Assembly: GCA_026387265.1 (NCBI GenBank) | Contig: JAPLLZ010000054.1 | Location: forward strand, 1 to 51,669 | DNA length: 51,669 nucleotides | From: Candidatus Omnitrophota bacterium | GTDB lineage: Bacteria > Omnitrophota > Gorgyraeia > Gygaellales > Profunditerraquicolaceae | Reading direction: 5' to 3' | In this document: one piece after another, positions 9,700 through 36,844 of the stretch | Position numbering within the stretch: position 1 is the first letter of the stretch | How the letters are laid out: each line of letters starts with the position of its first letter | The notes under the pieces: generated by a model | Database searches by the model: none | The model's input: only the letters and a program-made list of their open reading frames with translations | What the model was told of the DNA's origin: nothing | Position numbers and translations under genes: made by a program

Positions 9700-10176
9700 T
9701 TATTTTTTTGGCCCTTCTTCTTTAGGAAGCTGCGTTCCAAATGGCACAATTTCCTCAAAAGACTGCAACTCTTTTGACACAGGACTCATAAACCTAACTA
9801 CCCTGGCTAATTTAGTCAACACCCTAGTTTTGCTTCTCTCTTCACCGTTAACTGTCTCTTTGGAAACTTCAGATATCTCTGCATATTTTATCCAAACACC
9901 CTCTCCGGGAATAATCTCTTTCAGGCTATTCTTGCGTTCCACTTTAGTGTCTTTATCAATGGTCAAGGCCATTTCATAAGATGTTCTTTTATCCAACCCG
10001 TAATTAATGGCAATAAAATTAGAGGTAATGGCCACTACCTTGCCTTCTAAAATTTTCTCTTGGGTTACTTTTTTAGGTTTGTTAGCTTCTAAAGGCTCTT
10101 CAGTAAATCCCAGGCTCTTTATACCTAAAACTAAAACCAGCACCAATACCAATTTAATGATTCTTAAGCCTATCAC
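9700..10176 (-). CDS. Exported hypothetical protein (small OB-fold/DUF5666-like)
   Basis: ORF 9700..10191. The more likely start is GTG at 10176, after a GGAGGGG Shine-Dalgarno and overlapping the upstream TAG (TAGTG). Hydrophobic N-terminus; LEGKVVAI...IDKDTKV...GEGVWIKY pattern. Confidence 0.65.
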   Translation of the reverse strand: MIGLRIIKLVLVLVLVLGIKSLGFTEEPLEANKPKKVTQEKILEGKVVAITSNFIAINYGLDKRTSYEMALTIDKDTKVERKNSLKEIIPGEGVWIKYAEISEVSKETVNGEERSKTRVLTKLARVVRFMSPVSKELQSFEEIVPFGTQLPKEEGPKK

Positions 10177-11441
10177 TATTTTCCCCTCCAATACTCACCG
10201 GTAAATGTAAAATCCTGCACGGCTAAGCCTTCTTTACGTAAGCTTAAAACACCCTTCATTTTACCATCAGAACTAATATCTGCTCGCCATAGTGCTATTC
10301 CTGTAGGAGCCGCTTGCATCGTCTCCCAAATAATTTTTCCGCTCTCTCCGTTTCTTATGGAATAATTTGAAGAGGCGAATTTTTTCTGTTCTAAGTTTGT
10401 CGAAATAAATTTTTTCTGAGAAAAAGTCAGGGTGTCGGTTTGCGCGGCGCCTCCGGAAGCTGGTGTAAGAGTAATCTGCCAGATGGTGCCTTCCAAGGCT
10501 TCCTGCGGTTTTGGCGTTGAACGAACAACCGGCTGTGCCTCTGCTACTTTTACAGAAGCAGAAGTTTTATCCAGGTTTAAAAAAACCGGTTTGCTCTCTT
10601 TAGCTGTAACCGCACGCTCTTCATTTAGAATAACGCCTTTATTTCCCTTAAGCGCAAACTTAGCTACTAAGGTCAACCCTAATCCTACCAATGCCACCAC
10701 TAAAATTGTAGTGCCGACTTTTAATCCCGGGCCTTTTACCGGCTCTTTAGTTTCATTATCGCCTGCTTTTTCATCTTGGCTTTCTTTATTTATGAATTCA
10801 GCCCTAACCCGATTCTGAAATTCCACTCCCCCTAAAACTCCTTTTTTCTGCAGGGCATTATGCAGATCTAAATCCCCAGCCTTGATTAATTCTTGCATAA
10901 ACTGTTCATATGTTTTCTGTCCCAATAAATTCAAAATTATATTTCTTTCTTCCTGCATAAATTCCTGCATGGGCATCTCTTTATTTATATAAAGAGAATA
11001 GCTGGTGTAAGGATAATCTTTTGCGGAAAAAACCAGGTTGAGTTTTTGCGGATTTAAATGAATATACGCGGTAAGTTTTAAAAGATAGGAATCCTTTTCC
11101 ACCAGGGCAGTTTTAAACCTGTCTCTAAAGAGATGGCCTTTTCTACCGTATTTGCCATTAAAGTATTTAGTGTAAGAAGAATTCAGCCCATGCATAATCT
11201 CCGAAATTCCTCCCTTAAAATCTTCCTGGTCCTGATCAGGTAATTCTAATAGAAGATGAAAATGGCTCGGAAGTAGAGCGTAAGCATATAATTTAAATTT
11301 ATATTGTTCTTTGTATTTTTTTAATAATTCAAAATACGCATTGTAATCTGACTCTTCCTTAAATATATCCTGATTATAAATACAGCGGCTGGTTATGTAA
11401 TAGAGTGCATCTTCTAATGATATTCTCGGTGGTCTTGGCAT
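10176..11441 (-). CDS. REP-associated tyrosine transposase (RAYT/Y1 HUH) domain fused to a transmembrane helix and an exported beta-domain
   Basis: N-terminal motifs MPRPPRI, YYITSR..NQDIF, SHFHLL (HUH), YFNGKYGRKGHLFRDRF and YIHLNP (catalytic Tyr). TM segment TTILVVALVGLGLTLVAKFAL. C-terminal domain paralogous to 13858..14442. Confidence 0.9.
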   Translation of the reverse strand: MPRPPRISLEDALYYITSRCIYNQDIFKEESDYNAYFELLKKYKEQYKFKLYAYALLPSHFHLLLELPDQDQEDFKGGISEIMHGLNSSYTKYFNGKYGRKGHLFRDRFKTALVEKDSYLLKLTAYIHLNPQKLNLVFSAKDYPYTSYSLYINKEMPMQEFMQEERNIILNLLGQKTYEQFMQELIKAGDLDLHNALQKKGVLGGVEFQNRVRAEFINKESQDEKAGDNETKEPVKGPGLKVGTTILVVALVGLGLTLVAKFALKGNKGVILNEERAVTAKESKPVFLNLDKTSASVKVAEAQPVVRSTPKPQEALEGTIWQITLTPASGGAAQTDTLTFSQKKFISTNLEQKKFASSNYSIRNGESGKIIWETMQAAPTGIALWRADISSDGKMKGVLSLRKEGLAVQDFTFTGEYWRGK

Positions 11442-11500: not shown

Positions 11501-11530
11501 AAAAAAAACCAGCCATTTTTCCTGGCTGGT
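11501..11530 (-). terminator. Intrinsic terminator (riboswitch expression platform)
   Basis: ACCAGCCA-GGAAAAA-TGGCTGGT followed by a T run, located between the aptamer and the RAYT-fusion gene. Confidence 0.85.
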
Positions 11531-11559: not shown

Positions 11560-11640
11560 TCTAGCAACCTGCCAATCCTTAAACCTAGGATGCACGGCTT
11601 TGCGTCCCTCAATCTCTTGAGGTTTGCCCTTCGAACTATT
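11560..11640 (-). ncRNA. c-di-GMP-I (GEMM) riboswitch aptamer
   Basis: Minus strand reads GGGCAAACC-TCAA-GAGA-TTGA-GGGACGCAAAGCC...GGCAGGTTGC, matching the GGCAAACC / GNRA-capped P2 / GGGACGCAAAGCC hallmark of the class I c-di-GMP aptamer. Confidence 0.92.
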
Positions 11641-11768: not shown

Positions 11769-13250
11769 CTAAATCTTGACATTAGCTTTAATTATTTTTT
11801 GTTCTTTTGTCGGTTTATCCTCCTTATTCGTAGCCACAGAGTTAATTTTATTTACCACCTCCATACCAGAAACAACTTCTCCAAAAATAGTATGCCTTCC
11901 GTCCAAGCCGGGAGTAGATTTTACGGTAATAAAAAACTGGCTGCCATTAGTATCCGCGCCGGAATTAGCCATGGCTAAAATCCCGGGTTTATCAAATTTA
12001 ACCTTATCGCTAATTTCATCACTAAAAGGCTTTTTCCAGATTGACTCTCCTCCAGTTCCTGTAGCTGTAGGATCACCGCCTTGAATCATAAAATCTTTAA
12101 TTACCCGGTGAAAAGTAACTCCGTTATAATAACCTTTTTCTACCAAGCCTATAAAATTCTCACAGGCCAGCGGGGCTATCTCCGGGAACAATTTAACTTT
12201 AATCTGCCCCTGATTAGTTACAATAATCACTTCTGATTTTTTCTTCATCTCCACGAGCTTATCCGCATCTTCTTTATCTTTAACAAAATCTTTTAAGTTG
12301 GCCCGTTTAAAAAGATCATCTAAGAAATCCTGGGCAATTTTACGCTTGCGGCCGACAGTGAGCATCTTACGGTAATATTCCTGTTTAGCCGCATCATATT
12401 CTTTTAAATTCGCCTTCCTGGCATAAAGCAGGCGGAAAACTACATCCCCATAATAATTCTTGGCTGCAATGAAATCTCCGGTTTTAGAATTAAGAATCCG
12501 GTAAGCGTCGTCCTTAGGAATCATCCAGAGATCGATTAAAGCCTCCAGTGACATAACATTAATCCATGATGCGCCCTTTTGGCCTAATGGCTTTTTTTGA
12601 ACATAAGTATCAAACCATAATTTTGGATTTTTCTTTGCCTTGCGCGCAAACTCCTGAGCTTCTTTTTGTTGATCTTTGCCAAATAAAATATACTCACTTT
12701 CAAAAGAATTATAGCTGTTAAGGAATTTATCTTTCATTTCCTGCTCAGCAACCTTAACTTCAGGATCAAGCTTAGTTTTAAGCAGCTTATTCACCATTAA
12801 CAATTCTTCAATACGCGTTTCAAAGGTTGCCGGGTCTTCGTTAAAATTTACTAACACCCAACCCCGGTATTTCTCCCCTCCATATTCAACGTTTTTTTCT
12901 GCCAGCAACCGCTTAACTTCTGACAAAACATCCTCTTTAGATATAAAGATACCAGTATCCCTGGCTTCTTTAATAAAAACCAGATTCTGCCACGCTTCCT
13001 GACGCGTATCTTCATCTGTGCGTTCAGCTTGCATTCCTGAGCGTGTAAAAAGCAGTGCCGTTTTGTAATAGTTAAGGAAGGTTGCCCGACTAATGGGCTT
13101 ACCAAATGCCTCTCCAACGGTTTCAAACTTAATAATGTCCTCAAATTTGTAGGCCCAAGCAGAAGAAGCAACCAGTAAAATTAAAAAAATAGTGCTTAAA
13201 ATTATTGTAGGTAAGTTTAATTTTTTATGTGTTTTTATGGTAGTATTCAT
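11769..13250 (-). CDS. Exported foldase: SurA/PrsA-like N-terminal region plus C-terminal cyclophilin-type peptidyl-prolyl isomerase
   Basis: Signal/TM at the N-terminus. C-terminal cyclophilin motifs APLACENF, YYNGVTFHRVIKDFMIQGGDP, GILAMANSG, TNGSQFFIT and LDGRHTIFGEV. Confidence 0.9.
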   Translation of the reverse strand: MNTTIKTHKKLNLPTIILSTIFLILLVASSAWAYKFEDIIKFETVGEAFGKPISRATFLNYYKTALLFTRSGMQAERTDEDTRQEAWQNLVFIKEARDTGIFISKEDVLSEVKRLLAEKNVEYGGEKYRGWVLVNFNEDPATFETRIEELLMVNKLLKTKLDPEVKVAEQEMKDKFLNSYNSFESEYILFGKDQQKEAQEFARKAKKNPKLWFDTYVQKKPLGQKGASWINVMSLEALIDLWMIPKDDAYRILNSKTGDFIAAKNYYGDVVFRLLYARKANLKEYDAAKQEYYRKMLTVGRKRKIAQDFLDDLFKRANLKDFVKDKEDADKLVEMKKKSEVIIVTNQGQIKVKLFPEIAPLACENFIGLVEKGYYNGVTFHRVIKDFMIQGGDPTATGTGGESIWKKPFSDEISDKVKFDKPGILAMANSGADTNGSQFFITVKSTPGLDGRHTIFGEVVSGMEVVNKINSVATNKEDKPTKEQKIIKANVKI

Positions 13251-13254
13251 TTTT

Positions 13255-13797
13255 TTATTTTTTAGTATTTACAATTGTAAATTTAACTGGATCAGAAACT
13301 AACTGCTCGCCAAAAGCGTCCAAACCAATTTCTGCACCAAAAACATTCTGATAAACCGCCACCACCGTATAAGTCCCCGGTTCAGTTATCTCGAAATATC
13401 CTTTTAAATTCCGGGGATATTCAGATTTCGCTTCCTCATTAGGAGCTAATAATTTAAAATAATCTGCCTTAGGATAACCGGTTTCAAAAAAATTCTGGCA
13501 GGGCAGTTTTGCACCCGATGGCGAGGTTAACTCAAAATAAACCTCTTTTTGGTTTTTAGCAGCCTTTTGAGCGCTGATATAAAACCTCTGATTCACCATC
13601 ACCGGATTGTTCCCTAGATTTTTCAAACTAAAATTAACATTAATTGGCTCATTAGGCGAGTATTCAGTTTTTTCTAATATCAGGCTAAATTTAAGTTGGG
13701 TATCGGCACATAAAACAGGCCTGCCTAAAACCAACACTAAAACAACTGTAAAAATAGCTGTCGCCAACCCGCAAAAAAATATGTTTTTTTTGATCAT
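13255..13797 (-). CDS. Exported hypothetical protein, Ig-like fold
   Basis: Signal peptide; LKFSLILEKTEY.PNEPINVNFSLKN ... ITEPGTYTVVAVY beta-sandwich pattern. Confidence 0.65.
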   Translation of the reverse strand: MIKKNIFFCGLATAIFTVVLVLVLGRPVLCADTQLKFSLILEKTEYSPNEPINVNFSLKNLGNNPVMVNQRFYISAQKAAKNQKEVYFELTSPSGAKLPCQNFFETGYPKADYFKLLAPNEEAKSEYPRNLKGYFEITEPGTYTVVAVYQNVFGAEIGLDAFGEQLVSDPVKFTIVNTKK

Positions 13798-13857: not shown

Positions 13858-14442
13858 TTATTGATTAATAACAGCTTCAGACGCTGCTGGCTCCACTACT
13901 GCCGGAATAGGCTCTACTACAGCCGCCGGAGGCGGCACTACTGCGGCCTTATTCGACGCCAAGCTATAGAAATTAAAGTCCGAAACTCTATTTTTCTTAT
14001 CTCGAATACTCAAAACCCCCCGCATTATCCCGTCGCTACCTATATCGCCACGCCAAAAAGCTGCGCCTTCTTTCTCTGAAACTTGCATCGTTTCCCAGGT
14101 ATAGGTCTCCCCATCTTCTAACAAGCGCATAGAAAAATTAGTAGCCTCAAACCCCCTAACCACCATGTTTTTAGAACTTACTTTACCATCAATAAAACTT
14201 ACAACATCTTTTTCGGTTTTACCTTTACCAGACATTGCCTTAGTCTCAATAGCCCATTCTGTACCATTAAGCTCTAGTTTTTTCTTTGCGACCATATCTT
14301 GTGTTTTACTATTTAGTTTTTTTACAACAGGCGCAGCTGTCTTTTGCTCCGCTTCTCCTTTAGCAAACCACTCCGCAAAAACAGAACTTGAATTCATCGC
14401 CAAAAACCCTAAAACTACAAGCACCGAAAGCAATCTCTTCAT
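13858..14442 (-). CDS. Exported hypothetical protein; stand-alone paralogue of the RAYT-fusion C-terminal domain
   Basis: Signal peptide MKRLLSVLVVLGFLAMNSSSVFA. Shares L.GT.W.I, WETMQ, WR.DI.SDG.M.GVLS.R and DF.F with residues ~317-415 of 10176..11441. Confidence 0.8.
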   Translation of the reverse strand: MKRLLSVLVVLGFLAMNSSSVFAEWFAKGEAEQKTAAPVVKKLNSKTQDMVAKKKLELNGTEWAIETKAMSGKGKTEKDVVSFIDGKVSSKNMVVRGFEATNFSMRLLEDGETYTWETMQVSEKEGAAFWRGDIGSDGIMRGVLSIRDKKNRVSDFNFYSLASNKAAVVPPPAAVVEPIPAVVEPAASEAVINQ

Positions 14443-14542
14443 TCTACCCTCCTATTGTTATCGCCAACTGATTTATTATGCCCGTTTACTTGATTTACAA
14501 CCTTACTGTAAAATATCACCTCCCTCTCTGCATCCTTTCGCT

Positions 14543-15577
14543 TTATTGCACCCGCTGCTTACCATCATAAGCTTCCCAAGTAAGCAAATATTTCTTAACC
14601 CAATCTATATCTTTATCATCACCTTTAGCTAAACTCAAGTAATATCTAAAATGTTTGCTGGCTTTTTGGCGGTTCACCAGGTACTCTGCATAAATGTAGC
14701 CTAAATTAAAATGCGCATAAGCATGATTGGGATCGATCTCAACCACCTTCTCAAACTCTATCGCTGCGCGGTCATACTGTTTATTTTTGGAATAAAAAAT
14801 ACCTAGGTTATAATGCATCTGCGCAGTTTCTGCTATTAATAACTTGTTCTGCCGGGCAAGCTCCGCAATCTTCTTAGGCACATTTTGCACTTCATCCCAC
14901 ATCATCTTATTTTTCTTCAGCGCTTCAGCCAGTTTATCTTTACAATCTTTTAATTGCAATTTTAACGAAGTATTCTCCAACTCTAGCTTAGTCTTCTGCT
15001 GCCTAATCTGATCAAATTCACTTTCCTGGCGTTTGGCGCTATTTTGAATGGCAGTTTTTTCTTTTTGCAAGTCTCCAAATTTTTTATTTAAATCTTTAAT
15101 CTTAACGGTTGCCTCTGCTTTATCGCAAGAGACTTTAAGAGTATTCCATTTTGCAATCAAGTCTTTTTGCGCTGCCTGAAGGCGGCTAATTTCATCCTTC
15201 TGGCTCAGATTACTACCCTGTAATTCATTTTTTTCTTTAGCCAGTGCGGCTAAATCTTTATTAATTTTCTCCAGAGAAATCGCCAACTCAACCGCCTTAC
15301 TTCTTTCCGGCAGAAGAGTTTTAATTTGCGTCATAAGATTTTCCCGGTCAACTTTAACCGCTTCATTTTCCTTAAGCAGCTGGGCATTTTCATTCTTAAG
15401 GGTAACACTTTCCTGGCTTAATCTTTGATAACCCGGATTGATATCTTCTAGCTGTTTAGATAAATCCTGTACTCGCTTAGTTAGATTCTTCGACTTATAA
15501 GCAAAAAATATAATACCGATACAGGCTACTAAAATCGCTACACCCACAACTATTGTCTTTAACTTTAGCTTACTCAT
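14543..15577 (-). CDS. Membrane-anchored coiled-coil protein with C-terminal TPR repeats
   Basis: Start re-assigned to ATG 15577 (AGGAG SD, overlaps the secretin stop). N-terminal TM, long heptad region, and TPR motifs AQMHYNLGIFY...AHFNLGYIY. Confidence 0.8.
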   Translation of the reverse strand: MSKLKLKTIVVGVAILVACIGIIFFAYKSKNLTKRVQDLSKQLEDINPGYQRLSQESVTLKNENAQLLKENEAVKVDRENLMTQIKTLLPERSKAVELAISLEKINKDLAALAKEKNELQGSNLSQKDEISRLQAAQKDLIAKWNTLKVSCDKAEATVKIKDLNKKFGDLQKEKTAIQNSAKRQESEFDQIRQQKTKLELENTSLKLQLKDCKDKLAEALKKNKMMWDEVQNVPKKIAELARQNKLLIAETAQMHYNLGIFYSKNKQYDRAAIEFEKVVEIDPNHAYAHFNLGYIYAEYLVNRQKASKHFRYYLSLAKGDDKDIDWVKKYLLTWEAYDGKQRVQ

Positions 15578-17591
15578 TGCTTGCGTCTCCTTTAAGTGTC
15601 GGCTTATATTCCTCTTCCTGTTTAATACTAGAATAATCACGATAGGATTTAATTTCTTCTTCGGGTGCTCCTTTAGCCTCTACCTTTTTCTCCGGAACGT
15701 CTGCATCTTTAAAATCCGGCTTTTCTGTAAAAGGCGCATAAGCATTATACTCTTTATTCGGCTCATCCTGGAATCTTGGCTCACGCCTGTCCCCAGTAAC
15801 TAAAATATCCCCGGAAGTAATATGCGGCGTAATCATTACTAAAAGCTCGGTTTTCTCAGTTTTACTTGTCTTGTTTTTGAAAAAATAACCTATCAGGGGA
15901 ATCTTACCTAAAAATGGGAATTGTTCTACAGCCGCAGTTTTATCTTCTCTACGCAAGCCTCCGATAATAATCGTTGAACCATCCTTAACCATTACTGTAG
16001 TTTCTGACATAGAGGTATCAATAATCGGAATTTTATTACCGCTGGGAGTATCCAAAAAAGAAACAACGCTGGAAATTTCAGGTTTTATTTTCATCGTAAC
16101 ATACCCGTCATCATTTATCGTCGGCGTTACCGACAACTGGATACCGACATCCACAAAAGTCACCTCTTCCGAAACTGTAGAGGTACTTTGGCCGGTAGTA
16201 GTAGTAGAAGTAACATAAGCCTGGCGTTCACCTACGTGAATTTTGGCTTCCTGGTTATTGACTATCGAAATTTTCGGGTTAGAAAGAATCTGGGTGTTCC
16301 CCAAAGTCTGAACATATTTGAGTACAATATCGACGTCACGCTTAGAATCCATAATACCCAAATGCAATACCCCCGGGCCGGCTTTGGAAGTAGATGAAGT
16401 GGTTCCGGTATTACCGGTAAAAGGATAGGAACCAATTTGATTATTCATTGTATTTTTTAAATAATCATACCGGGACTGAAAAGTATTAGTGGTATCTGTT
16501 TCGATAGGCTTAATCACGCTAAAAGGATTGGCTCCGAAATAAGCCATCCCGTATTCAGATGCCGCAGCAAGCAAACCTTCCCATTCAGCCCCCGTTTCTA
16601 ACTGATCCGATAACTTAACTTTTATAATTGTACTATCAATTAATACTTGTTTTGTTTTCTGGTCAAGGCTAGCAATCAGTTTTTCAATATTCACCATTCT
16701 CTCAGGTAACGTCTGTATAATCACCTGATTGGAGCGTTCGTCTGCTTTAATTGTACCAACTTTTTTCGTATCCAGCTGCGCCTTCAACTGCTCCTCTACA
16801 TCTTTGGCTTTAGCATATTTTAATTGAAACACCCGGACTAAATTTTTTTGTTCTAGCGTAGACAGGGCTTTTTCGATTTCGGCAATTTTCTCCGGCGTAT
16901 CCATAATTAAAGCTGTACCAGAATCAGGCTCAACTAAAACCCTGCCGATTTCACTCTTTAAAGCATCCAGCATCGCAAATACCTGCTCAGGTATGGCATA
17001 TTTAATTCTAAAGACTTTGACTTCACGAATATCCGCAAATTTTTTCCCGAAGAGAGATTTATACTCTTCGCCGGTCATAATGTTATAAATTTCTCCCTCT
17101 TTAGTATACGCCAGGCCGTTTGAACGCAACATTATATCAAAAACATCTCTGGCCGGAACATTTAATACCATCAACGTAACCCTGCCGGAAACATCTTTTG
17201 TAGAAATCATATTGATGCCTGTTTTCAACGATAGGAACTTTAGAGCATCGGTAACTTCTATATTACGTAAATCTAAAGAAATCCTCGCATTCATCCCCAC
17301 AGCTACAGGATCGGCGGCATTTTGAACGAGCGACTTTGATACTGGCTGCAAAGGTGTTTCTGCTTGCGTTGCGGCAACAGGCAAAGCTGAATTTCCAACA
17401 GCAGTTACCGCAGTGGATATATTTGCCTGATTCGCTACTACAGGCGCCGATACCACCGGTTGAGAAGTAACCATAGAGGTATTCGAGGCCTGAGCTAAAC
17501 CAGCCGGACGCTCTTCAGCCTGAGCTTTATAAAAAAGAAAAAAGGAACAGGCCAGGATAATAAAAATAATTGTTCTTTGAATAATTTTCAC
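15570..17591 (-). CDS. Outer-membrane secretin (GspD/PilQ family)
   Basis: ISLDLRNIEVTDALKFL N0 domain, DERSNQVII N domains, ILSNPKISIVNNQEAKIHVG, VGIQLSVTPTIN and PFLGKIPLIGYFFK...KTELLVMITPHI secretin signature. Confidence 0.93.
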   Translation of the reverse strand: MKIIQRTIIFIILACSFFLFYKAQAEERPAGLAQASNTSMVTSQPVVSAPVVANQANISTAVTAVGNSALPVAATQAETPLQPVSKSLVQNAADPVAVGMNARISLDLRNIEVTDALKFLSLKTGINMISTKDVSGRVTLMVLNVPARDVFDIMLRSNGLAYTKEGEIYNIMTGEEYKSLFGKKFADIREVKVFRIKYAIPEQVFAMLDALKSEIGRVLVEPDSGTALIMDTPEKIAEIEKALSTLEQKNLVRVFQLKYAKAKDVEEQLKAQLDTKKVGTIKADERSNQVIIQTLPERMVNIEKLIASLDQKTKQVLIDSTIIKVKLSDQLETGAEWEGLLAAASEYGMAYFGANPFSVIKPIETDTTNTFQSRYDYLKNTMNNQIGSYPFTGNTGTTSSTSKAGPGVLHLGIMDSKRDVDIVLKYVQTLGNTQILSNPKISIVNNQEAKIHVGERQAYVTSTTTTGQSTSTVSEEVTFVDVGIQLSVTPTINDDGYVTMKIKPEISSVVSFLDTPSGNKIPIIDTSMSETTVMVKDGSTIIIGGLRREDKTAAVEQFPFLGKIPLIGYFFKNKTSKTEKTELLVMITPHITSGDILVTGDRREPRFQDEPNKEYNAYAPFTEKPDFKDADVPEKKVEAKGAPEEEIKSYRDYSSIKQEEEYKPTLKGDASNE

Positions 17592-18253
17592 TTGAGCTCA
17601 AACTCCTCGTTATCTAAACTTAATACAATTTTATCCTTAAAAATAGCCTGCACCCTTGCTTCACCTACCATATCCCCTCTTTTTACAAAAAATGTTTTAA
17701 GTTCCTTTGTATCTTCAATCATTGCATCCGGATCGCTAGACCAGGAAATTCCGACTAATTTTAAGCTTGCCGCTAACTCCAGGCTTTTTGAAGAAGGAGA
17801 AGTATCCACAACCGCTTTCTTAGGCCCCATGGTAAAAATATCTCTTGCCCTAACCTTTTCTAAATAATAAGAGGCGGCCTTGTTTAATCCCGTGGGTTCC
17901 GGAAAACTAGTTTCAATCTTAGCTGCCGGCGCATTTGATTCTAAACGCGGCGTCTTATTTACATTAATTAAAGAAACAACAAAATTAACCGAAAAATATG
18001 TTAAGAGCAATGCTGCTATAAAACCAAGAATTCTGTTTACGGCTTTAACATCTAATTGCTCCAGATTAAAACCTTGCGACCATTTTCCTAATCGTACTTT
18101 TAAAAAAGAAATCCTCCCCAGCCATGCCCCAAAATCCAACCAGCTCATGTTGCGCCGCGACGACTGAGCATGCACCCCAATGGAATTCATCTTAGAGGTT
18201 TCAATAATCTTTAAAAGCTGTTTTTCTGGAGTGAGAGATCGTTCCTGTGCCAT
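17588..18253 (-). CDS. GspC/PilP-like secretion-system accessory protein
   Basis: Single TM followed by RDIF...LKLVGISWSSDPDAMIEDT...FVKRGDMVGEARVQAIFKDKIVL (HR domain-like); coupled to the secretin gene. Confidence 0.75.
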   Translation of the reverse strand: MAQERSLTPEKQLLKIIETSKMNSIGVHAQSSRRNMSWLDFGAWLGRISFLKVRLGKWSQGFNLEQLDVKAVNRILGFIAALLLTYFSVNFVVSLINVNKTPRLESNAPAAKIETSFPEPTGLNKAASYYLEKVRARDIFTMGPKKAVVDTSPSSKSLELAASLKLVGISWSSDPDAMIEDTKELKTFFVKRGDMVGEARVQAIFKDKIVLSLDNEEFELK

Positions 18254-19080
18254 CCGCTTGTTATATCCTCATTAATTATTTCCTGAATTAACGCCGCGTC
18301 AATCACAAATTTATTTTTAAGCACCAGGTTTTTAAGTGCCCGATGGCAAAGCATGGTTATCCTCCTGGGATACCCCCGGGTATATTGATGCACCTCTTTA
18401 ATTGCATCATCTAAAAACAGATGCATATTCGCAGAATAACCCGCCTGCTTAACTCTAAATTCAATCATCTCCCTGGTTTCTTCAAAATCCAAAGGATTCA
18501 AAGTATACTTAAAACTAATCCGGTCAAAAAAATTAGAGATCTCTGTAATTTTAGCATGTAATTCCAGCTGACCCAAAAGCACTAATTGAATAAGCTTAAA
18601 CTCATTAGTCTCATAATTTAAAAGCACACGCAGGACTTCCAATGATGATTCATTTAATTTCTGAGCTTCATCAATAATCAAAGTAACGGTTTTGTTCTCC
18701 GTTACTCCTTTTTGGAACAAAAATCTTTCTAACCCTTCCCGCAATGCCACAATTCCCATGGGAGTATCATTATTAATAGCAATTTCAAAATTTTTGGCCA
18801 AAGAAACAAGAAAAGATTCTTCACTTTCAAAAGAAGGATCTAAAATAATATGAAAAATAAAATCCGGCCGGTCCTTTAATTCTTGGATCAATTTTCTAGA
18901 CAAGGTTGTCTTGCCGGTTCCCACATCGCCCAAAATTACAGAAAGGCCTCTTTTAAGCCTAAGCTCAATCAAGATGTTGGCTAAAGCAGATTCATGCTCT
19001 TTAGATAAATAGAAAAAATCCGGATCCGGGCTGGTAGAAAAAGGCTCTTTTTCGAATCCTAACACCTTGAAATAGCTCAT
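18211..19080 (-). CDS. exeA: ExeA/GspA-family AAA+ ATPase
   Basis: YFKVLGFEKEPFS.SPDPDFFY, Walker A GDVGTGKT, Walker B LIIDEAQ and GYPRRITMLC. Confidence 0.88.
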   Translation of the reverse strand: MSYFKVLGFEKEPFSTSPDPDFFYLSKEHESALANILIELRLKRGLSVILGDVGTGKTTLSRKLIQELKDRPDFIFHIILDPSFESEESFLVSLAKNFEIAINNDTPMGIVALREGLERFLFQKGVTENKTVTLIIDEAQKLNESSLEVLRVLLNYETNEFKLIQLVLLGQLELHAKITEISNFFDRISFKYTLNPLDFEETREMIEFRVKQAGYSANMHLFLDDAIKEVHQYTRGYPRRITMLCHRALKNLVLKNKFVIDAALIQEIINEDITSGWHRNDLSLQKNSF

Positions 19081-34805: not shown

Positions 34806-36728
34806 AATAATTTGATTTTCAAGCGCTTTTATCTGAACATCCATCTCCTGGAACAACTTTTCAATCTCTTTCATTCTGCGCCCATATTCCTTAGCCGTTT
34901 CTTCATCACGGTAGAAATGAGGATTGGACAAAGCCCGCGCTTTTGCATAACTCTCTAACTCTAGCTCCTGCTTTTTCTTTAAAATTTTATTGATTTTATC
35001 ACGAATTACTGAATTATTCGTCTTACGCTTTTTCTCCTGGCTCTTACGTAACTGCTCTTCCTCTTTAGCCTTTTCTTTAGCATCATCAACTAGTTTAACC
35101 AGTTTCGGTTTGGATTTAACCGTATTTCCCCCATCCGTTAAAGTATCGCGTTTTTCCAGGTAATAATCAAATGTCCCGGGGAATTTTCTAATCCTGCCAT
35201 TTTTAACCTCAAAAACATTGTTAGCTACCGAACTTACAAAATAAATATCATGGCTGATAAAAGCAATCGTGCCTTCATAATTCTTAAGCGCCCGCACCAA
35301 AGCATCAACCGCATCCACATCCAAATGCGTAGTCGGTTCATCTAAAAGCAGAAAGTTCGGCGGATTGATTAAAAGCTTAGCTAAAATAAGCCGGCTTTTT
35401 TCTCCTCCGGAAAGGACCTTCACCTTCTTCTCTGCATCATCACCGCTAAATAAAAATGCGCCTAAGATAGTCCGGATGGATTCCTCGGCCATATAACCGG
35501 GAGCTGCGCTATAAGCCTCCTGCAAAACAGTATTTTCTACATTTAGAACATCCGTACGGGTCTGCGAAAAATACCCGATATCTACATTATGCCCAACCAC
35601 CCTGTTACCGCTATCAATCTCGACAATTCCCGCCAATATTTTTAATAAAGTGGATTTACCTGCCCCGTTCTCTCCGGCGAGAACTGCTTTCTCGCCTTGA
35701 GTTATTTCAAAATCCAACCCATCATAAACCCGGATATCCCCGTAAGCTTTTGCAATATTTTCTAACCTGATAACCAAGTGTCCTGAGCGGCGGGTCTGCG
35801 GAAAAGTAAAGGTACCGATACTCTGCCGGGGATCCGGCGGCACAACAACTTTCTCCTCATCCATTCTTTCTAAAACTCTGCGCTTGGCGCGCACAGAAGC
35901 AGCTTTATTCGGTTGCGCATGAAATCTTGCCACAAACTTCTCTAACTGGTCTATCTTTTTATCCTGCTCCTTAGACTGTTTAATTAAATGCGTACGCTTT
36001 TGCAGTTTTATTTCTTCATAATGCTCATAATTACCATGCACTTTAGTAATTGATCCGTTTTCCAAAATCAAACTGTAATTGGTCACATCCGTTAAAAAAG
36101 CCCGATCATGAGAAATCATGATAAATGTACCCCGGAAACCTGCTAAATAATCTTTAAGCCATAAAGCAGCGTTTAAATCCAAATAGTTAGTCGGCTCATC
36201 AAGAAGTAAAAGATCATAATGATAGGTAAGCAGCTTAGCTAAAAGTACGCGCATCTGCCAGCCGCCGCTTAATTGCAGAATCGGACGGTTGAAATCTCTT
36301 TCTTTAAAACCTAACCCGGAAAGAATTTTTTCTGCTTTGTGTTCCAATTCAAAAAACCCCAAAGTTTCCAATTCATGTAAAATCTCTCCATACCGGCCTG
36401 ACCCGGCCTGATTAGCCGACTCCAAAGCTTCTTTTTCTTTTTTCAAACTCATAATCCGGTCATCCCCCTCGGTTAATTCTGCCAAAACCGTACGTTGCGA
36501 AGTAAAACTTGCCTCCTGAGGAAGATAGCCAATATGCACACCTTTATTTAATCTTACCTGGCCTTCGGATGCCTCAATCTCCTGGAGAATCAAAGAAAAT
36601 AACGTACTCTTCCCCGTACCGTTAGGGCCAATTAGGCCAATTTTCTCACCCTGGTTAATGACCAAAGAAACATCCTTAAAAAGAATTTTAGGCCCGTAAT
36701 TTTTTGAGAGATTGCTAATGTTAATCAT
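34803..36728 (-). CDS. ABC-F family ATPase (YheS/Uup-like)
   Basis: Two ABC domains (GPNGTGKS, LSGGW, LLLLDEPTN; GENGAGKS, LSGGE, LLLDEPTT), no TM, C-terminal coiled coil. Start set to ATG 36728. Confidence 0.93.
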   Translation of the reverse strand: MINISNLSKNYGPKILFKDVSLVINQGEKIGLIGPNGTGKSTLFSLILQEIEASEGQVRLNKGVHIGYLPQEASFTSQRTVLAELTEGDDRIMSLKKEKEALESANQAGSGRYGEILHELETLGFFELEHKAEKILSGLGFKERDFNRPILQLSGGWQMRVLLAKLLTYHYDLLLLDEPTNYLDLNAALWLKDYLAGFRGTFIMISHDRAFLTDVTNYSLILENGSITKVHGNYEHYEEIKLQKRTHLIKQSKEQDKKIDQLEKFVARFHAQPNKAASVRAKRRVLERMDEEKVVVPPDPRQSIGTFTFPQTRRSGHLVIRLENIAKAYGDIRVYDGLDFEITQGEKAVLAGENGAGKSTLLKILAGIVEIDSGNRVVGHNVDIGYFSQTRTDVLNVENTVLQEAYSAAPGYMAEESIRTILGAFLFSGDDAEKKVKVLSGGEKSRLILAKLLINPPNFLLLDEPTTHLDVDAVDALVRALKNYEGTIAFISHDIYFVSSVANNVFEVKNGRIRKFPGTFDYYLEKRDTLTDGGNTVKSKPKLVKLVDDAKEKAKEEEQLRKSQEKKRKTNNSVIRDKINKILKKKQELELESYAKARALSNPHFYRDEETAKEYGRRMKEIEKLFQEMDVQIKALENQII

Positions 36729-36743
36729 AGTAATTGATTTGTT

Positions 36744-36844
36744 AGATCCTTCGCCCGTCACAGGGCTTTGGCGGACTCAGGATGACTCCATTAAAACATT
36801 AATAATTAATTTTTTGGTCATCCGCCACTGAAACGTTGGCGGAT
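36744..36844. repeat. REP-like remnants in the recR / ABC-F intergenic region
   Basis: AGATCCTTCG...TTTGGCGGA-CTCAGGATGAC half element and palindrome ATCCGCCA-CTGAAACGT-TGGCGGAT (36820-36844). Confidence 0.55.

Follow-up and report, generated by a model that had tools for sequence, protein, structure and literature searches.

A small beta-barrel protein encoded beside a secretin in Omnitrophota and its membrane-tethered paralog in the giant-gene operon

Genes at the locus

The window considered here is a whole contig of 51.7 kb from a 1.56-Mb Omnitrophota MAG. All of the features described below are on its minus strand and are listed in the order in which they would be transcribed. A secretin operon is headed by the genes for a GspC/GspB-like protein of 221 amino acids (aa) and an ExeA/GspA-like AAA_22 ATPase (positions 17588 to 19080), which were assigned from the ATPase domain (E=3e-19) and from conserved synteny; the 221-aa protein itself has weak T2SSC, T2SSB and GspC matches. 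The next gene encodes a secretin of the PilQ/GspD type (15570 to 17591; PF00263, E=2e-49). An AAA_22 ATPase, a GspB/C-like protein and a secretin are therefore present in one operon, which is the composition of a GspA/GspB-type module. The secretin gene is followed by a gene for a TM-coiled-coil-TPR protein, here called TPRcc (14543 to 15640), that matches Pfam TPR families and an NCBIfam PilW-like TPR model (E=2.5e-7).

Directly downstream of TPRcc is an unannotated ORF of 194 aa (13858 to 14442), which is the main subject of this report and whose product we refer to as the free barrel protein. In the clade to which the window belongs, its operon continues with the genes for a 180-aa exported protein and a SurA_N-cyclophilin PPIase (11769 to 13797). 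The 180-aa protein (13255 to 13797) has a weak BsuPI-like match (E=0.008); its gene is directly downstream of the free barrel gene in one large clade and absent in others.

A c-di-GMP-I riboswitch (11560 to 11638; Rfam RF01051, 58.6 bits, E=1.3e-9) and a terminator-like hairpin (11508 to 11530) lie between the PPIase gene and the next coding sequence. The riboswitch heads a second unit, the first gene of which encodes a 421-aa fusion protein (10176 to 11441) with a Y1(HUH) domain, a TM helix and a second copy of the barrel. The unit continues with a 163-aa small protein and a giant protein of more than 3,128 aa, which runs off the contig (1 to 10191).

The free barrel protein

The 194-aa gene starts with an ATG at position 14442, and a Shine-Dalgarno sequence, AGGAGG (14448 to 14453), can be read directly from the sequence with a 5-nt spacer to the start codon. 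The first 23 residues (14374 to 14442) are MKRLLSVLVVLGFLAMNSSSVFA and are followed by EW. They form a standard Sec/SPase-I signal with MKR, a hydrophobic core and cleavage after VFA, and the AlphaFold2 (AF2) model has an N-terminal helix at residues 3 to 20. Ala23, at position -1 of the cleavage site, is near-invariant over 65 family members, and an AxA-type SPase-I site is part of the family consensus. There is no lipobox cysteine, nor indeed a cysteine anywhere in the protein. Therefore, the protein is expected to be exported and not to be a lipoprotein, and we rejected an identity as a lipoprotein pilotin, which would have an acylated cysteine in a lipobox.

The AF2 model, which was built from 65 homologs, has a mean pLDDT of 85.7. 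A Lys-rich helix at residues 39 to 58 (14269 to 14328), with the family consensus AKKKxELNGTEW and a pLDDT of 83 to 96 at residues 41 to 60, precedes a predicted eight-stranded beta-barrel domain at residues 59 to 166 (13945 to 14268). The eight strands lie between residues 61 and 165 and have a pLDDT of 94 to 98. The barrel carries a signature that consists of W63, D79, F83, G97, W116-E-T-M-Q120, W130-R-G132, M140-x-G142 and F158. An RGD motif in the window copy (R131-G-D133) was set aside, since it is not conserved and most of the family has RGE. The protein ends with a Pro/Ala-rich tail at residues 167 to 194 (13861 to 13944; pLDDT 73 to 78), which differs in length and sequence between homologs and has a dN that is four-fold above that of the barrel. 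When the free and the fused genes of the window were compared with their orthologs in two related genomes, dN/dS was about 0.1 for both, with dS near saturation, and the barrel region was under tighter constraint than the linker or the tail. These values point to purifying selection on both genes.

Lipocalins and other calycins have an antiparallel barrel of eight strands around a ligand cavity. The AF2 model has eight strands at high confidence, and the lipocalin-like matches that Foldseek found in the PDB are weak (E of at least 0.015). The best match of any kind had E=0.015, TM scores did not exceed 0.55, identities were 8 to 12% and no match was below E=0.001. The top match is a Bacteroides lipocalin-family protein, and all of these weak matches are small eight-stranded barrels, including lipocalin-like proteins, the fHbp C-terminal barrel, HpuA, TbpB, NHBA, VirK and LolA. 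Known secretin partners were not among the Foldseek matches, and there was no significant fold match to any pilotin. We take the matches to indicate the fold class of the modeled protein and not its function.

Sequence searches gave a similar picture. Neither Pfam (E up to 10) nor NCBIfam placed the protein in a family; no Pfam model of the lipocalins was matched at this threshold, and there was no match to the Pfam HR-domain families PilP, T2SSC and T2SSB. A faint Pfam hint to an SP_0191-like barrel (E=0.15) was seen. A sequence-profile search of the PDB found nothing better than E=0.25, and this match, to Bd3460, was set aside as non-significant; it covers the signal peptide and linker region.

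The fused paralog

The fusion protein has three parts. Residues 1 to 215 (10797 to 11441) are a predicted cytoplasmic, RAYT-like Y1/HUH domain (Pfam PF01797, E=5e-11), which scores 73.7 bits with the NCBIfam REP_Tyr_transpos model, under its cut-off of 80. The closest solved structure is that of E. coli TnpA-REP (YafM, 4ER8), with which the HUH and YxxxNP motifs are in register. This likeness to RAYT/TnpA-REP proteins is limited to the N-terminal domain. Unlike them, the fusion scores below the NCBIfam cut-off and is joined to a TM helix and a barrel. The single TM helix is at about residues 244 to 264 (10650 to 10712; Kyte-Doolittle maximum 2.47), some 50 to 70 residues upstream of the barrel, and a single equivalent segment is present in all 28 fusions found across the phylum. 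The paralogous barrel domain occupies residues 313 to 421 (10179 to 10505) and was recognized by BLASTP, hhalign and AF2. It has the same eight-strand pattern as the free barrel, with a pLDDT of 68 to 91; the AF2 model of the whole fusion is poor (pLDDT 50, from a shallow alignment) and served for the strand pattern of the C-terminal domain only.

The initial annotation had described the tethered copy as nuclease-linked. This description suits the window copy, in which both HUH histidines (HFH at residues 60 to 62) and the catalytic tyrosine (Tyr126 in YIHLNP) are intact, as they also are in its 26 close relatives. However, it does not extend well to the phylum, where both histidines and the tyrosine are kept in only 14 of the 28 fusions; 10 have lost the HUH histidines, and 10 have His or Phe in place of the tyrosine. 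The loss of the HUH and/or Tyr in half of the orthologs is another difference from RAYT proteins. Therefore, catalysis is not the conserved feature, and the conserved role of this transposase-derived domain is probably not DNA cleavage. The N-terminal MPRxPR and several other positions are invariant across the fusion orthologs (loci L011 to L044).

Two loci have the fusion in pieces. In genome G087 (L045, contig C27), a 352-aa Y1 protein without a detectable barrel adjoins a separate free barrel of 190 aa, and in G196 (C106, positions 35530 to 36768) a TAA stop splits the Y1 part from the barrel part. In both cases the fusion may have undergone fission or decay.

Size and range of the barrel family

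A word-indexed search found 141 close homologs of the free protein with lengths of 115 to 242 aa. None of them has a Pfam domain, all are from Omnitrophota and all are unnamed or labeled hypothetical. An exhaustive HMMER search of 1.84 billion representatives gave a family of 1,092 clusters at 50% identity (E of 1e-3 or lower), 848 of which had E of 1e-10 or lower. Judged from these searches, the free barrel gene is a member of a large family without a previous description.

The family appears to be confined to Omnitrophota. A scan of the GTDB species genomes found 45 barrel loci, nearly all of which are titled Omnitrophota. Seven contigs with a barrel gene (L054, L061, L068, L079, L085, L088 and L091) are titled Planctomycetales, Planctomycetia, Deltaproteobacteria or Promethearchaeota archaeon CR_4; these titles are probably the result of MAG mislabeling or misbinning. 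Within the phylum, the family is present in 72 of 401 genomes, or about 18% of the sampled Omnitrophota species. This number excludes one of 73 matches, in G025 (E=8.7e-4), which was rejected as spurious since only N-terminal positions were matched. The 1.56-Mb genome of the window has two barrel copies only, one free and one fused.

Relationship between the two copies

The initial annotation had proposed, from a manual alignment, that the two proteins share a domain with roughly 40% identity over about 103 aa. The peptides quoted in its support were located at residues 115 to 147 of the free protein and 371 to 402 of the fusion, and both a pairwise alignment and a profile comparison bear the proposal out. 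BLASTP aligned residues 58 to 158 of the free protein with residues 316 to 413 of the fusion (43 of 101 positions identical, or 43%, with three gaps; E=4e-20), and hhalign aligned the free and fused families over 108 columns at 41% identity with a probability of 99.9% (E=7e-32). In addition, free and fused copies have the same invariant signature across the phylum. The description of the 194-aa protein as a free secreted paralog of a membrane-tethered copy also holds, in that one has a Sec signal and no anchor and the other makes up the C-terminal, extracytoplasmic part of a single-pass protein.

A further suggestion, that the fusion arose locally by duplication, has to be abandoned. A maximum likelihood tree was built from 71 barrel domains of about 35 genomes. 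In it, a single branch separates all 28 fused domains from the free copies (UFboot 94, SH-aLRT 90; recovered in 92% of the bootstrap trees). The fused clade spans many families and more than one class, and the free copies fall into several clades, in which secondary duplications have occurred repeatedly. Furthermore, the two copies in the window are 43% identical to each other, but each is about 80% identical to its own ortholog in a congener. Because all of the fused domains are in one clade, the tree points to one ancient event of duplication and fusion and not to a local one. Thus, the fusion arose once, before much of the phylum diversified.

Two modules, each with its own copy

The gene neighborhoods were compared by using homologs on long contigs together with 40 further stretches from about 30 genomes, all annotated against the window proteins and with domain HMMs. 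The free copy directly follows TPRcc, which itself directly follows the secretin, in 29 of 43 cases from about 35 genomes, and most of the remaining free copies, which are not after TPRcc, are second copies. Upstream of the secretin are the gene for the GspB/C-like protein of about 220 aa, the ExeA/GspA-like AAA_22 ATPase gene and often a MerR gene.

This adjacency is found across the phylum. A profile of 21 TPRcc orthologs was searched against the 401 genomes, and 64 of them had a strong TPRcc (best E of 1e-50 or lower). The barrel family is present in 63 of these 64 genomes as compared with nine of the 337 others. Most of the nine are in family f60, where TPRcc-like scores are 1e-35 to 1e-44 and where some free copies are about 20 kb from the nearest TPRcc-like gene.

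The fused copy has different neighbors. All 28 fusions are followed by a small gene for a protein of 136 to 276 aa, and a giant ORF is next wherever the contig extends far enough. Among eight other loci, a c-di-GMP-I riboswitch is directly upstream of the fusion gene in seven (L011, L012, L017, L031, L037, L038 and L042), and none was detected upstream of the fusion in L032. For two loci, the GGC-variant model was the best match. The free copy next to TPRcc is outside the riboswitch-headed unit in the window and in those loci, and so the paralogs are in different transcription units.

The initial annotation expected the two genes to occur together in other genomes, and they do: 42 of the 44 fusion-bearing genomes among the 401 also have a free copy. 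The free copy is present without the fusion in 28 genomes, and the fusion without the free copy in two, one of which is 76% complete. Fisher P values for co-inheritance were 1.8e-62 and 1.4e-35; as they ignore shared ancestry, they show only that the association is very strong. The two copies are within 6 kb of each other in 22 genomes. However, in six genomes (G236, G242, G297, G294, G290 and G223) they share a contig but are separated by 35 to 50 kb that contains unrelated genes, and in these split genomes the free copy is with the secretin and TPRcc and the fusion is with the giant gene.

Several loci have other arrangements. One clade (L006, L007, L035/L034, L036, L039, L041 and L043) has two secretin modules in tandem and no adjacent giant gene; the first module consists of a PPIase, a GspB/C-like protein, a secretin, a TPR protein of 926 to 1,277 aa and MerR, and the second of a secretin, TPRcc, the barrel, AAA_22 and an HD-domain protein. 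Extra free barrel copies recur in L012, L019, L020, L021, L027, L041 and L043. Some of them are between the PPIase and the riboswitch/fusion, those in L020 and L027 come immediately after the fusion, within the giant-gene operon, and L041 and L043 have tandem pairs after TPRcc.

The secretins that belong to barrel modules share a further feature. Beyond the secretin domain, the window protein has a C-terminal tail with the motif K-x-Y-x-x-Y (KSYRDY, residues 648 to 653, nucleotides 15633 to 15650). The motif is conserved in the secretins of barrel modules (the window and L003 to L048) and absent from the tandem secretins, in those same genomes, that precede the long TPR proteins, and no other protein in the first 20 kb of the window has it. 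We also considered whether the motif might point to a partner of the fused barrel, but it was found neither in the giant protein nor in the 163-aa protein nor in the linker of the fusion.

Possible functions of the barrel pair

The explanation that we favor, with a probability of about one half, gives the free barrel the role of a periplasmic accessory subunit in the secretin module, possibly a pilotin-like one, and has its tethered paralog dock the membrane protein of the giant-gene operon to the same partner. The module has the order MerR, GspA/ExeA-like ATPase, GspB/C-like protein, secretin, TPRcc and barrel, with the barrel inherited along with the rest, and the 194-aa barrel product is a predicted Sec-exported, non-lipidated periplasmic protein with a small eight-stranded barrel as its core. 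The barrel would bind a component of the secretin assembly, for which the K-x-Y-x-x-Y tail of the secretin and the neighboring TPR protein are the candidates. The tail motif may be an S-domain-like docking peptide; it could equally be read by a TPR domain. Once bound, the barrel would have a part in the assembly, stabilization or gating of the pore, in the manner of pilotins and other proteins that dock to secretins. Some observations speak against this explanation, namely the missing lipobox, the Foldseek matches to generic small barrels, the free copies of family f60 that are far from a TPRcc-like gene, the extra free copies in the giant-gene operon of L020 and L027, and the presence of the family in only about 18% of the sampled species.

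The tethered barrel is the periplasmic end of a single-pass inner-membrane Y1/HUH protein, encoded by the first gene of a riboswitch-controlled giant-protein operon. Because both paralogs have the same invariant signature, the tethered copy most likely recognizes either the partner of the free copy or the free copy itself, and the membrane protein of the giant-gene operon would thereby be coupled to the secretin machine.

Known secretin systems offer some precedents. Pilotins of unrelated folds bind the C-terminal tail or S-domain of secretins; the MxiM pilotin is a cracked beta-barrel, the PilW/PilF pilotin is a TPR protein, and GspA and GspB act jointly on secretins (PMC3276575, PMC9239104). 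The secretin module in the window has counterparts of several of these helpers, namely a GspA-like ATPase, a GspB/C-like protein and a PilW/PilF-like TPR protein. Like the pilotins (MxiM, OutS/PulS, AspS and PilW/PilF), the free barrel protein is small, exported and encoded beside a secretin, and one of the pilotins is a small open beta-barrel. A short C-terminal tail is bound in the pilotin secretins, and the secretins here have a conserved tail motif. The PilW-like TPR protein of the barrel module, TPRcc, recalls the PilW/PilF pilotin in turn. The barrel is also inherited with the secretin that it accompanies, as would be expected of a pilotin, in view of the gene order in 29 of 43 free copies and of its presence in 63 of 64 TPRcc genomes. 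Unlike pilotins, it lacks a lipobox and a lipid anchor, and it has no sequence match and no significant fold match to any of them. We know of no pilotin that has a membrane-tethered paralog fused to a Y1/HUH domain.

A comparison can also be made with the HR-domain proteins PilP, GspC and GspB/OutB, which are alike in having a small beta-rich periplasmic domain that exists in soluble or lipid-anchored and in TM-anchored forms. However, the HR domain is a beta-sandwich, in contrast to the eight-stranded barrel of the AF2 model; the barrel has no PilP or T2SSC match in Pfam, and the operon already has a separate GspB/C-like protein, the 221-aa one. HR-domain proteins link the secretin to inner-membrane components (PMC9239104).

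The main rival explanation is close to the ligand/decoy-receptor idea of the initial annotation. Under it, the barrel would have a small molecule of the periplasm as its ligand, for instance a lipid, a piece of the cell wall or a compound derived from prey. The free copy would be a soluble binder, carrier or decoy and the fusion a ToxR-like one-component receptor that signals to its Y1 domain. The fold class is in keeping with this, as the top Foldseek match is a lipocalin-family protein and the others are small ligand-binding barrels; the faint SP_0191-like hint is in the same direction. For example, BACOVA_00364 (4GZV) and the C-terminal barrel of fHbp (4AYN), the best though weak matches, have eight antiparallel strands and a similar size, but the E values, TM scores and identities given above are poor and no lipocalin Pfam model is matched. 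The invariant aromatic residues (W63, W116, W130, F83 and F158) and polar or charged residues (D79, E117, Q120 and R131) are pocket-like and the same in both paralogs, and membrane-tethered regulators are built like the fusion, with a nucleic-acid-binding fold in the cytoplasm, a single TM helix and a domain in the periplasm. On the other hand, sequence searches with E as high as 10 found no lipocalin or other ligand-binding family, and strict adjacency to and co-inheritance with the secretin and TPRcc suit a machine subunit better than a sensor. In addition, 28 genomes have the free copy without the fusion, and the invariant partners of the free copy are the secretin and TPR genes, so that the primary role of the free copy would be in the secretin module and not that of a decoy. 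Overall, we regard a ligand-binding pair as unlikely, with enough in its favor to be kept in mind; the two copies may also form a heterodimer, as the initial annotation suggested.

Alternatively, the secretin might export the free barrel itself, as a cargo or a surface component, for example, a secreted factor, a cap or an adaptor presented together with the giant protein. The free protein carries a Sec signal, lacks a membrane anchor and has a variable Pro/Ala-rich tail that could be a spacer, and it is encoded in a secretion locus beside the gene for a giant surface protein. However, substrates of secretin systems are seldom so tightly syntenic with the pore gene, and the paralog has kept the same signature while being fixed to the inner membrane. 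As its TM helix is only about 50 to 70 residues upstream of the barrel, the fused copy must act in the periplasm, which makes a cargo or surface role less likely, and we consider such a role quite improbable. Finally, a recent local duplication that gave a lineage-specific heterodimer pair in the window genome, as the distance of just 2.4 kb between the two barrel genes might suggest, is ruled out by the barrel-domain tree, by the presence of the fusion architecture across the phylum and by the identities of the two copies to their orthologs, and we give it almost no credence.

A more elaborate version of the accessory subunit explanation can be imagined, in which the pair would be a switchable coupling device. 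The free copy would hold the site on the secretin complex by default, and the tethered copy, once the c-di-GMP riboswitch permits the giant-gene operon to be expressed, would pair with it or displace it. The pore would then be physically connected to the Y1-domain protein of the inner membrane and, by way of that protein, to the nascent giant protein or its gene. As a result, either the giant protein would gain a route of export or the state of the pore would be signaled to the cytoplasm. In this full form the proposal is speculative and its chances are rather low.

Conclusions

The findings bear on the export and control, in Omnitrophota, of proteins that are thousands to tens of thousands of residues long. 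In these bacteria, giant genes have been described downstream of a conserved T2SS-like locus that includes a PPIase (West-Roberts et al. 2023, bioRxiv 10.1101/2023.11.21.568195), and the window resembles this locus in having a secretin and a PPIase before the giant gene. A 2026 preprint (10.64898/2026.06.07.730766) counts secretion and transposase genes that flank giant genes. In the parts of these two reports that we consulted, the secretion-like locus beside giant genes is noted and its small genes are left uncharacterized, and there is no mention of the barrel family, of its Y1-fused paralog or of the partition of the two between modules.

One of the small genes of the locus can now be defined as a member of a large unannotated family, the two forms of which are divided cleanly between the pore module and the giant-gene module. 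If the free barrel is indeed an accessory subunit of the secretin module, it would add a new fold family to the very diverse proteins that service secretins. The barrel pair may link the pore to the giant proteins, and it is a testable candidate for a physical or regulatory connection between the two modules.
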